Virus record (IMG/VR): IMGVR_UViG_3300012281_000006
Length of the DNA stretch: 18,129 nt
From: a virus
Taxonomy: Duplodnaviria > Heunggongvirae > Uroviricota > Caudoviricetes
Reading direction: 5' to 3' (one strand)
Position numbers and translations under genes: made by a program. This document shows, piece by piece, positions 750-18,129 of this stretch (position 1 is its first letter; each line of letters starts with the position of its first letter). A model generated the notes under the pieces. It had not been told where the DNA came from. It worked only from the letters and a program-made list of their open reading frames with translations, and did not search any database.

Positions 750-819
750 TACAATCGTTGCGGGTGCTTGAGGCTATCTGCTTCAGGCATTACCAGAAAA
801 GCAGATAGAAGAAAGCCCC

Positions 820-885
820 AGATAACATTACGCGTCCTGCAAGACGCTTAACATTAATCTGAGGCCATATCTATGCTTAGCATAC
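820..885 (-). ncRNA. Possible sok-like antisense RNA to the hok/mok leader (position inferred)
   Basis: Minus-strand sigma70-like elements (TTGACC as rc of 912-917; GCTAAT as rc of 889-894) facing into the mok start region; hairpin GCGTC-N6-GACGC at 833-852; inferred by analogy to hok/sok, not demonstrated. Confidence 0.2.
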
Positions 886-1079
886 GTAGATTAGCCTCTT
901 ACCGACCAAAAGGTCAAGGAGAAGCAGGCTATGAAGCAGCAAAAAGCGATGTTAATCGCTCTGATCGTCATCTGTTTAACCGTCATTGTGACGGCACTGG
1001 TAACGAGGAAAGACCTCTGCGAGGTACGAATCCGAACCGGCCAGACGGAGGTCACTGTCTTCACAGCCTACGAATCTGA
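873..1079 (+). CDS. mok-like reading frame overlapping hok (modulator of hok translation)
   Basis: 68-codon ORF starting at ATG 873 and overlapping the hok ORF in another frame, the arrangement of mok/hok in hok-sok loci. Confidence 0.4.
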   Translation: MLSIRRLASYRPKGQGEAGYEAAKSDVNRSDRHLFNRHCDGTGNEERPLRGTNPNRPDGGHCLHSLRI

Positions 1080-16410: not shown

Positions 16411-16591
16411 AATGAATCGTGATTTATAGAGCGATTTAGCTGTTAGCCGCGACAGGCGCGGCGGTAAGCATGGCTGGGCCTAGTCCTCCCAGACAAACCA
16501 CCGAGTTGCCAGGTTGACCATGCGCCTAAGTGGTAACACCGAAGTGCGTTACGAGCTTCCAGTTTGCCCATCTTCGGGTGGGCGTTTTTTT
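16411..16591 (+). ncRNA. Candidate small late RNA (~180 nt) from the late promoter to the terminator at 16566-16591
   Basis: No convincing ORF (longest about 15 codons); internal hairpins GCCGCG/CGCGGC, CTGGG/CCCAG, GTAAC/GTTAC; bounded by promoter and terminator. Confidence 0.3.
16566..16591 (+). terminator. Rho-independent terminator (GCCCATC-TTCG-GGTGGGC followed by GTTTTTTT)
   Basis: 7-bp GC-rich stem with TTCG tetraloop and 7-T run. Confidence 0.8.
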
Positions 16592-16780
16592 CAGGGTTTT
16601 CGTCATGGTTAGCGACTTTGCGGCGGTTTAGAAACTGACCATTAAAGTAAATGCAAACGATGATCTGATGATGGTAGCGGCCTAAGAAGCCAGACGCCAC
16701 GGGGTATGAGTCGTCCCCCGTCAAAAAATCGACCGCAGAGTGTCCCCGTCTGTGTATTAGGGAACGGGGAGGCATAACAA

Positions 16781-16847
16781 GGTAAGGGCGCTGGTTCGAT
16801 TAACCAGGTGAGCGAGAAGGGGCCATCTTTTGGTCAGTGCCCTTACC
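16781..16847 (+). other. Structured element E1: GGTAAGGGC...GCCCTTACC stem enclosing a TTCGATT-containing hairpin; paralogous to 17220-17293
   Basis: Outer 9-10-bp stem shared with E2, including the flanks aaca(A/G)GGTAAGGG and CCCTTACC(n)GTT. Confidence 0.3.
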
Positions 16848-17057
16848 TGTTACGTCCTTTTTCATTCAGCGTAACAGCCATTGCTTAATGGCATCCTGGG
16901 AGAATTTCTTGTAACGGGTATATCCCGTCATGCTGAAGGCGCTAATCACGCTGGAAGCCAGGGTTGTGCATCCCCTGTTACCGAATTGCAGCCAGGGCGC
17001 GGTGCGCCGAAAAGCATACGGAGGTGGAAGCCCTCGCCGGAGACGTACCCGGCAAGT

Positions 17058-17133
17058 GATGGTGTAGCTCAGCGGTTAGAGCGGTTGACTGTTAATCAAC
17101 GGGTCGATGGTTCAAATCCATCCACCATCGCCA
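17058..17133 (+). tRNA. tRNA-Asn (anticodon GUU), CCA encoded
   Basis: Manual cloverleaf: acceptor GATGGTG/CACCATC, D-arm GCTC-AGCGGTTA-GAGC, anticodon loop CTGTTAA, T-arm GATGG-TTCAAAT-CCATC, discriminator G, CCA. Confidence 0.9.
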
Positions 17134-17135
17134 AT

Positions 17136-17211
17136 GCCGGTTTAGCTCAGTTGGTAGAGCGCCTGCCTTGTAAGCAGGATGTCAGCGGTTCGAGTCCGTT
17201 AATCGGCACCA
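17136..17211 (+). tRNA. tRNA-Thr (anticodon UGU), CCA encoded
   Basis: Manual cloverleaf: acceptor GCCGGTT/AATCGGC, D-arm GCTC-AGTTGGTA-GAGC, anticodon stem CCTGC/GCAGG with loop CTTGTAA, T-loop TTCGAGT, discriminator A, CCA; starts 2 nt after tRNA-Asn. Confidence 0.9.
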
Positions 17212-17219
17212 GCACAACA

Positions 17220-17293
17220 GGTAAGGGTATTTTGCGACGTCGGAGATCGCCGAGCTTGGCAGAGGGTTCGAATCCCTACGAAGTACCCTTACC
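17220..17293 (+). other. Structured element E2: 10-bp stem GGTAAGGGTA/TACCCTTACC enclosing a GGGTTCGAATCCC T-arm-like hairpin; tRNA-like but not a canonical cloverleaf
   Basis: Perfect T-loop motif but no 7-bp acceptor pairing adjacent to the T-stem; paralogous to E1. Confidence 0.3.
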
Positions 17294-17444
17294 GTTGTGA
17301 GGAAACGCAGCTCTTTGAAGCAACCAGAAGATAAGCATCTGGCTTCACAACATAAACCGCAGGAACGACCAATAAACGGTAGTCCGTATGGAGAACACCC
17401 CGTTGAGGAAGAGGCCTGGCCGGAACCGTAACCGGCACTATAAC

Positions 17445-17526
17445 GTTGAGAACACTGGCGTAACGGGGTCATATCCCAATCTACGAATAAATGTTGCGTT
17501 GCAGCGTGACAACCAGTGTTCTCAAC
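17445..17526. repeat. 14-bp perfect inverted repeat (GTTGAGAACACTGG / CCAGTGTTCTCAAC) with 54-nt spacer; long hairpin in the tRNA-region spacer
   Basis: Exact reverse-complement arms at 17445-17458 and 17513-17526. Confidence 0.5.
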
Positions 17527-17686
17527 ATTGTGGTGAAAGCGCGTTGCTGGCGCGCAAGTCCGCCCTATGGCAACGAGGCGGCGTAGTAAATATCGATGCC
17601 TTAGTCATCAAGCGCACTGACCGGCCTTATGGGCTATGAACAAAAAGAGGCGCAGTCGGAGATCAGCACCGACCACCACAATCACT

Positions 17687-17773
17687 GGAGAGTAGGGAGC
17701 ATGGTGCTCAAGCGGTCTTGAAATCCGTCCCGTCGCGCAAGCGATGATGGTTCGATTCCATTACTCTCCGCCA
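17687..17773 (+). tRNA. Type II (long variable arm) tRNA-like gene, Ser-like, anticodon UGA predicted, CCA encoded; non-canonical D-arm
   Basis: Acceptor GGAGAGT/ACTCTCC, anticodon loop CTTGAAA (same loop as E. coli tRNA-Ser UGA as recalled), variable-arm hairpin TCGC-GCAA-GCGA, T-arm GATGG-TTCGATT-CCATT, discriminator G, CCA; one extra nucleotide before the D-stem and a T-T mismatch in the anticodon stem. Confidence 0.5.
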
Positions 17774-18036
17774 GCGCAACGTTAAGAGTATTTGGCTAAT
17801 TAAGCGAATGCCGGAAGCAGAACCGGATCACCAAATGCGTACAGGCGTCATCGCCGCCCAGCCAGCCAAATGCTCTTACCATTGCGGTGAATGCGGCTAA
17901 GCGCACGCGGGGAAATGGTTATATCAGTCCATTCATTTCTCCTTGTTTCCCCGTCCACGGTGGATAACCAGCCAAAGGACACCGGGAGGCACCCGGCACC
18001 GCAACCTTATTTCCCAACCAGTAATGAGGTTAATAA

Positions 18037-18129
18037 ATGCTCGGCATTCTCAAAAAGAAATTCCGCAAAGCGGCTGGCGGAGTCAAGAAGATGGAAAACC
18101 GTGATGCGGTGGAAGCGACCGTCTGGGGC
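18037..18129 (+). CDS. 5' end of a hypothetical protein gene running off the window (MLGILKKKFRKAAGGVKKMENRDAVEATVWG...)
   Basis: ATG at 18037 with TGAGG SD 8 nt upstream; frame open to the window end. Confidence 0.45.
   Translation, partial: MLGILKKKFRKAAGGVKKMENRDAVEATVWG

Follow-up and report, generated by a model that had tools for sequence, protein, structure and literature searches.

A tRNA-Ser(UGA) gene with a compact D-arm in a P1-family phage-plasmid and in other mobile elements

The DNA analyzed here (18,129 nt, hereafter the window) is from a P1-family phage-plasmid. At its right end ARAGORN found three tRNA genes on the + strand, tRNA-Asn, tRNA-Thr and tRNA-Ser, and it called the third as tRNA-Ser with the anticodon tga at exactly 17687-17773(+). 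We consider it likely that this gene encodes a functional elongator tRNA-Ser(UGA), a member of a serine-tRNA lineage that travels on phages and other mobile elements. The ARAGORN call and the sequence features uphold the original prediction of a Ser-like type II tRNA with a non-canonical D-arm. Both the gene and its structural class are already known, the former having been annotated and the latter published. The features discussed below are as follows; position n within the tRNA corresponds to nucleotide 17686+n of the window.

16359-16404 (+): homologue of the P1 C1-controlled ban promoters and operator (Op72); mapped from P1, approximate
17058-17211 (+): tRNA-Asn(GUU), 17058-17133, and tRNA-Thr(UGU), 17136-17211, upstream in the same-strand cluster; ARAGORN, Rfam
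17541-17868 (no strand assigned): tRNA-Ser segment of 328 nt, replacing the 235-nt upl-containing segment of reference P1; BLAST against P1, D6 and P7
17687-17773 (+): tRNA-Ser(UGA) gene, 87 nt with encoded CCA; ARAGORN, family covariance model, homologues
17687-17694 (+): 5′ strand of the acceptor stem (positions 1-7) and A8; pairs 1-7 covary
17697-17709 (+): compact D-arm, 4-bp stem GAGC/GCUC and 5-nt loop AUGGU; sequence, covariation
17712-17728 (+): anticodon arm, loop CUUGAAA, anticodon UGA at 17719-17721
17729-17745 (+): long variable arm, 17 nt, CCC followed by a 5-bp stem with a GCAA loop; the stem covaries
17746-17762 (+): G60, 4-bp T-stem AUGG/CCAU, canonical loop UUCGAUU and U76; sequence
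[quoted passage not shown]
17774-17864 (+): 3′ flank travelling with tRNA-Ser, about 83% identical in unrelated rV5-like phages

Architecture of the tRNA and its scores on tRNA models

We first describe the gene itself. The acceptor stem GGAGAGU/ACUCUCC forms seven perfect pairs (17687-17693 with 17763-17769) and is followed by the discriminator G and the encoded CCA (17770-17773). Thus the class II fold of 87 nt, the perfect acceptor stem, the canonical T-arm and the encoded CCA that had been predicted are all present in the sequence, in agreement with ARAGORN. The 17-nt variable arm was also seen as described, its own hairpin being a 5-bp stem-loop at 17732-17745. In the D-arm region, A8, G9 and G10 place three nucleotides ahead of the 4-bp D-stem, if the acceptor and T-stems are read as 7 and 5 bp (7/5), and A24 and A25 follow it; the extra nucleotide before the D-stem and the short D-loop that had been pointed out are therefore real. 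The GG within the D-loop is expected to contact the T-loop. The claimed T-T mismatch at the base of the anticodon stem is likewise in the sequence: 17716 and 17724 place U opposite U at the loop-closing pair, leaving four standard pairs in the anticodon stem of the window copy.

The host serine tRNAs provide the closest functional comparison. E. coli serT has the identical anticodon loop, as the original prediction had stated; we verified the serT sequence by a 100% match to an annotated tRNA-Ser in 5426 of 5426 complete E. coli genomes, and that of serU likewise. With serU, the tRNA-Ser(CGA), the window tRNA shares acceptor pairs 1-6 (six of the seven), G73 and CCA. The core is different. U8 is nearly universal in tRNAs, and serT and serU both have it, together with a 3-4-bp D-stem containing C11-G24 and a 9-11-nt D-loop, whereas the window tRNA has A8, a G11-C pair and a 5-nt loop. 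It thus departs from the canonical design, in which U8 and a two-nucleotide linker are followed by a D-loop of 7-11 nt.

This departure is reflected in the scores on general models. The Rfam tRNA model RF00005 gave no match over 17687-17773 at its gathering score of 29 bits, so that the window tRNA stays below 29 bits, compared with about 60 bits for a canonical class II serine tRNA; the neighboring tRNA-Asn(GUU) and tRNA-Thr(UGU) scored 74.5 and 72.9 bits. Intact relatives from Cyrano, Roth39 and ATCCa scored 32.7, 35.4 and 32.3 bits, and the D6 and phita32 copies, like that of the window, were under the threshold; the compact family as a whole reaches about half of the roughly 60 bits of canonical class II tRNAs. 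Since intact relatives share the low score, it reflects architecture rather than decay. By contrast, a covariance model of the family (see below) scored the window copy at 111.6 bits (E = 7e-32). Rather than a pseudogene score alone, which the original prediction had named as the result that would speak against a tRNA, ARAGORN returned an outright tRNA-Ser call. The minimum-energy fold of the isolated sequence is not a cloverleaf, but the same is true of host serT, and single-sequence folding is therefore uninformative here. We conclude that the core of this compact serine tRNA is truly atypical; its compatibility with every host enzyme is assumed.

The tRNA-Ser of phage T4, the subject of classical characterization, is also phage-borne, has the anticodon UGA and lies in a tRNA cluster, and we considered it as a functional precedent. 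It is canonical, however, with U8 and an 11-nt D-loop, and scored 62.6 bits on RF00005 and 43.5 bits on the family model, as compared with 111.6 bits for the window tRNA. We rejected it as a precedent because it is not a member of the family.

The best Rfam match of the tRNA-Ser(UGA) sequence was tRNA-Sec (RF01852; 42 bits, E = 9e-7), with which it has in common a compact D-arm and a long variable arm, and possibly an 8-bp acceptor stem. One might thus read the gene as a selenocysteine-type or other recoding tRNA. We rejected selenocysteine tRNA because the anticodon is wrong and the score lies below the gathering score of 47 bits: the anticodon UGA reads the serine codon UCA, whereas the Sec anticodon UCA reads the UGA stop codon. 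In addition, the acceptor and T helix comprises 12 rather than 13 pairs and the D-stem four rather than six. Matches of such tRNAs to the Sec model have been identified as false positives arising from allo-tRNAs and (8/4) tRNA-Ser (PMC5389517). Any recoding role is, in our estimation, vanishingly unlikely.

Conservation and covariation of the compact family

The same gene occurs in phages P7 (96.6% identity over 87 nt) and D6 (95.4%) and in 340 PLSDB plasmids. Among complete E. coli genomes, 330 of 5426 have it, on plasmids and under the RefSeq label tRNA-Ser. Sequence searches revealed relatives in 337 phage records, including rV5-like phages (89% identity), T5-like and T4-like Klebsiella phages, and Pseudomonas, Brevundimonas and Streptomyces phages. 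In P7 (AF503408) and D6 (MF356679) the gene occupies the same place, between tRNA-Thr and tciA/terB, with collinear flanks. The window copy differs from these two at position 38, where it has T and they have A, and in the variable arm, where it has G46/C48; the D6 copy carries an A12-to-C change that breaks a D-stem pair. Among the 340 plasmids, only the Salmonella enterica plasmid pCFSAN058545_02 (NZ_CP077708.1, IncY, 96 kb) matches the tRNA at 100%, and it matches the window at 99.9% over 17212-18040; the window most likely derives from this plasmid.

Annotation of the gene is uneven. The D6 GenBank record annotates it with the remark 'apparent UGA Serine anticodon but AA not called by tRNAscan-SE', and in one rV5-like phage record it had been found only with ARAGORN, whereas the P7 record and many lytic-phage records omit it.

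We then searched IMG/VR using a pattern unconstrained at positions 8, 60 and 76 and obtained 120 loci with 62 unique sequences, every one of which ARAGORN called tRNA-Ser(tga). A covariance model was built with the same three positions unpaired, and 66 distinct members were aligned to it at a strict threshold. Across these members, 98.1% of the cells of the cloverleaf form standard pairs, and 22 of the 25 pairs show compensatory (two-sided) changes. None of 500 shuffled controls was as good as the observed covariation, and pairing fell to 40-55% when the partners were slid by 1-3 columns. Conservation and covariation together rule out a chance fold.

The D-arm and the variable arm both take part in this pattern. 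All four D-stem pairs show compensatory changes, pair 12:23 being AU in 27 members, CG in 16, GC in 8, UA in 8 and UG in 5, and the variable-arm stem covaries as well. Position 8 is A in the majority, and the D-arm of the relatives has a stem of 4-5 bp with an AUGG or GUGG tetraloop. The compact D-arm (A8-G9-N10, a 4-bp stem and a 4-5-nt loop with GG) is thus the conserved norm of the family. Because every D-stem pair covaries, the odd D-arm is a maintained trait rather than damage. Variation among near-identical P1-type copies preserves structure too: C50-G55 is replaced by U-A with pairing kept, position 46 is A or G opposite U59, and position 48 is U or C opposite G57. With the D-arm conserved and the P1-type variation structure-preserving, a pseudogene reading of the gene family is not supported. 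Of the three possibilities that the original prediction had left open, a lineage-specific tRNA is borne out, as reference P1 lacks the gene; an unannotated one is not, since D6 and RefSeq annotate it, and a tRNA-derived pseudogene finds no support at the level of the family, in view of the covarying D-arm.

Only the U.U opposition resembles damage, and it concerns the window copy rather than the family. Position 38 (17724) is polymorphic, being A in most copies, which gives a U-A pair, and G in E. albertii plasmids (U.G). T38 was found in the window, in one of the 340 plasmids (the Salmonella plasmid) and in two IMG/VR contigs; of 334 E. coli records, none matched at 100% identity. Its rarity could indicate that the window copy is a decaying, non-functional allele, a pseudogene in the making. 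Two further observations point in this direction: T38 costs about 1.2 kcal/mol of folding energy relative to the A allele, and it helps to push the Rfam tRNA score under the threshold, which the near-identical Cyrano copy with A exceeds. On the other hand, T38 is a single change in an otherwise intact gene, and the allele persists, being present on a second variable-arm haplotype in one IMG/VR contig (L131) and in an independent metagenome contig (L080). Position 38 also tolerates non-standard pairs, which occur in 8 of the 66 distinct members and include a C.A conserved within one subgroup, and host TruA could turn U39 into pseudouridine and so stabilize the opposition. We therefore regard decay as quite unlikely; the U.U is a rare allele that probably weakens the tRNA without abolishing its function.

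The pairing partner of position 76 bears on the class to which the tRNA is best compared. A8 and U76 (17694 with 17762) can pair, giving an 8-bp acceptor stem and a 4-bp T-stem (8/4); in the alternative 7/5 fold, G60.U76 is the fifth T-stem pair. Among the 66 distinct relatives, pair 8:76 is A-U in 46, G-C in 9, U-A in 2 and U.G in 1, and unpaired in 7, whereas pair 60:76 is G.U in 47, G-C in 5 and another standard pair in 3, and unpaired in 9. Double changes number 12 at 8:76 as against 2 at 60:76. For members with G8/A60/C76 the 8/4 fold is the sole possibility, while a minority of six or seven relatives can form only pair 60:76. The combination in the window, A8/G60/U76, allows both, and the two folds have practically the same energy (-30.7 kcal/mol for 7/5 and -30.8 kcal/mol for 8/4). 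With equal energies, it is the covariation in the relatives that favors the 8/4 arrangement, which the window tRNA probably adopts.

Members of the (8/4) tRNA-Ser and allo-tRNA class were first noticed because they nearly matched the tRNA-Sec model (Mukai et al. 2017, PMC5389517). Our family resembles the (8/4) tRNA-Ser described there in its long variable arm, its G73 (the class has G73 or U73), a D-arm that is Sec-like in being compact, and a near-threshold tRNA-Sec match, as well as in its occurrence in phage tRNA clusters and the covariation of an eighth acceptor pair, 8:76, in the relatives. It differs from allo-tRNAs in that the anticodon stem has five pairs and is not extended, as A25 and C43 cannot lengthen it; also, the window D-arm has a 4-bp stem and a 5-nt loop in place of the long stem and tetraloop of allo-tRNAs. 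Since the extended anticodon stem is missing, we do not file the family as a strict (8/4)/allo-tRNA member, the comparison being made with the description of the class.

A scan of one genome per bacterial species with the pattern used for IMG/VR returned two kinds of match. Ordinary serine tRNAs of the U8 type, mostly from Blastocatellia, are solitary: in 24 of 25 cases the 8-kb locus held no second tRNA, whereas compact non-U8 types (Cyanobacteria, Saprospiraceae and others) lie in arrays of 2-32 tRNAs per locus of at most 8 kb. The chromosomal contigs of Cyanobacteria and Bacteroidota carry their non-U8 tRNA-Ser(UGA) in dense arrays of up to 32 tRNAs per 8 kb, and the cyanobacterial compact tRNA-Ser(UGA) is G8/A60/C76, so that it can form the 8/4 fold only. 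The family thus lives in phages, phage-plasmids and chromosomal tRNA arrays. A 3′ flank of about 90 nt is shared by P1-type and rV5-like phages (window 17774-17864 and L003 1592-1672), indicating that the unit that moved was the tRNA together with this flank. In two rV5-like phages (L003 1690-1788 and L013 489-587), ARAGORN reported a 99-nt 'tRNA-???' with a four-base anticodon (atcc) beside tRNA-Ser; it scored 35.5 bits on the Rfam tRNA model.

The tRNA-Ser segment and its surroundings

We compared the window with reference P1, as the original prediction had suggested. The two are 96-97% identical up to 17540 and again from 17869 (pairwise BLAST); between these points P1 has the upl segment and no tRNA-Ser, and ARAGORN found no tRNA-Ser at the P1 locus. 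P7 and D6, by contrast, are collinear with the window across 17541-17868. That the original prediction listed only Asn, Thr and Ile tRNAs for P1 agrees with its RefSeq annotation.

The window is 96% identical to P1 at 16000-17540, across the annotated ban features, and tRNA-Ser lies upstream of tciA/terB, which starts at 18037. The homologue of the ban promoters is the presumed source of a transcript containing the tRNAs, and its use for tRNA-Ser would follow from this arrangement. A simple promoter scan of 16000-18129 detected no site, but as it also missed the homologue of the ban promoter annotated in P1, this negative result carries little weight. At 16565-16584(+) there is a terminator-like hairpin followed by a run of T, at the end of the region homologous to the dicF-like segment of P1; as it stands between the ban promoter homologue and the tRNAs, their transcription from that promoter would need read-through.

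Several other elements were noted in and around this region. Directly after tRNA-Thr, 17212-17300(+) forms a very stable structure (-41.6 kcal/mol, z = -5.4) consisting of a stem of about 20 bp and a junction cap with a T-arm-like hairpin (AGGG-UUCGAAU-CCCU). P1 and D6 have the identical structure, whereas P7 and phage Ro157c2YLVW keep the outer stem with a compensatory change and have a different, shorter apex. The structure lies antisense inside the annotated plp ORF of P1; it may be what remains of a tRNA, or it may act in processing or termination. Where P1 annotates the 125-aa Plp (L002 1683-2060), the window has only a 96-aa ORF (17182-17472, - strand), the swapped segment having removed the start of plp and the whole of upl. 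P1 plp runs opposite to the hairpin and to the 3′ end of tRNA-Thr and overlaps both, which makes its status as a real gene doubtful. The spacer that separates the tRNA-like hairpin from tRNA-Ser contains a 23-nt inverted repeat (17436-17458 and 17513-17535; 87% complementary), the arms of which lie 54 nt apart. We judged a 15-nt direct repeat (17234-17248 and 17650-17664; 87% identical) to be a likely chance match. Just upstream of tciA/terB, 17883-18003(+) matches the Rfam sRNA STnc100 below threshold (37.8 bits, gathering score 47) and may be a conserved leader of TerB-type genes. Far from the tRNAs, a sok antitoxin RNA at 762-936(+) scored 109.8 bits, indicating a hok/sok plasmid-stability module in the window. 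Finally, Ro157c2YLVW, a relative of P1, has an extra tRNA-Tyr (L137 439-525) inserted between tRNA-Asn and tRNA-Thr, which marks the tRNA island of P1-type elements as a hotspot for the gain and loss of tRNAs.

The location of the gene in a segment exchanged between P1 variants, with a second tRNA-like hairpin nearby (17212-17300), could be taken to mean that it has no tRNA function. It might then be a relic of recombination (for instance, part of an attachment site), or else a tRNA-like element serving regulation or processing in the leader of the ban operon. Relics at attachment sites usually comprise only a 3′ part of the tRNA gene. Here the full length is preserved, including the two acceptor strands and CCA, and the anticodon loop is intact, for which reason we rejected an attachment-site relic; P1-type elements, moreover, are plasmids and not integrating prophages. 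Conservation also reaches lytic phages, in which the gene sits in ordinary tRNA clusters. A non-tRNA function of either kind is thus highly improbable.

Expected role in translation and possible benefit to the phage

If the tRNA is a working elongator, as we favor, its expression would be tied to that of its neighbors. The gene follows tRNA-Asn and tRNA-Thr on one strand, inside the unit that is assigned in the P1 annotation to the C1-repressed ban promoters, and would therefore be made on derepression of the prophage, by co-transcription with these two genes from the ban promoters. RNase P and 3′ trimming down to the encoded CCA would then yield the 87-nt tRNA, which could be charged by the host seryl-tRNA synthetase (SerRS) through its long variable arm, G73 and the G1-C, G2-C and A3-U pairs. 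All of these elements (the pairs being G1-C72, G2-C71 and A3-U70) are present and match the E. coli serine tRNAs. The C11-G24 pair of E. coli serine tRNAs is a minor SerRS identity element, and the G11-C that replaces it in the window D-stem counts against charging by SerRS. Charging with serine is a prediction, with indirect support by analogy from 8/4 allo-tRNAs, the serylation of which in E. coli has been published (PMC5389517).

Because the anticodon loop is that of host serT, the tRNA would be expected to receive the same loop modifications and to read UCA, UCG and UCU. It could thereby supplement, or replace, the single-copy host tRNA-Ser(UGA) during phage growth. Per 1000 codons, UCA is used 12.1 times in the window ORFs, 8.3 times in ordinary E. 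coli genes and 1.8 times in ribosomal and EF genes. The enrichment over ordinary host genes is modest (about 1.5-fold), and ACA, the codon read by the neighboring tRNA-Thr(UGU), shows the same pattern. Codon use thus fits a supply role modestly.

The main benefit might lie elsewhere than in codon supply. The divergent D-arm and core, and perhaps the end of the anticodon stem, could allow the tRNA to serve as a spare that survives host nucleases depleting serine tRNAs during infection, which would keep phage translation going. This possibility, which we hold to be unlikely as the principal benefit, overlaps with our preferred explanation, since such a spare would itself function as a tRNA-Ser. 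When phages infect cells with a type I-A retron from E. coli FORC82, all four serine tRNAs of E. coli are depleted, and in the same study the differences between phage and host tRNAs cluster around the D-loop (PMC12475279); phage tRNAs are also reported to neutralize the PARIS and retron Ec78 defenses. The D-arm considered here is radically different from those of serT and serU, the architecture is tied to the tRNA arrays of mobile elements, and position 38 varies among A, G and T on several backgrounds in near-identical copies. However, T5 tRNA-Ser(GCU) was cleaved and did not rescue infection (PMC12475279), and an anticodon loop identical to that of host serT would not evade a nuclease that reads the loop. 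The variation at position 38 may also reflect weak constraint, considering the members that lack a standard pair there. A bolder version is that the A8-type compact lineage is specific to mobile elements and has been kept because its core escapes serine-tRNA-depleting nucleases (for example, the HNH effector of the type I-A retron) while SerRS still charges it, the A/G/U variation at position 38 being the trace of an arms race; we consider this quite unlikely.

Returning to the tRNA as a working elongator of a mobile lineage, the current understanding is unchanged, given that the gene has been annotated and its structural class published, and the compact shape, which is typical of tRNAs on mobile elements, is an interesting detail rather than a new one. 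Reference P1 lacks a fourth tRNA that is present in its P7/D6-type relatives, which make up about a third of the related plasmids in our sample; several phage records, including that of P7, still omit it. The gene offers a clear case of a serine tRNA whose core is non-standard, and this design is met again in chromosomal tRNA arrays and in unrelated phages of enterobacteria. If the tRNA is charged and used, it would show how much of the D-arm E. coli-type translation can spare, and it would be a natural candidate to be tried against the recently described defenses that cleave serine tRNAs.
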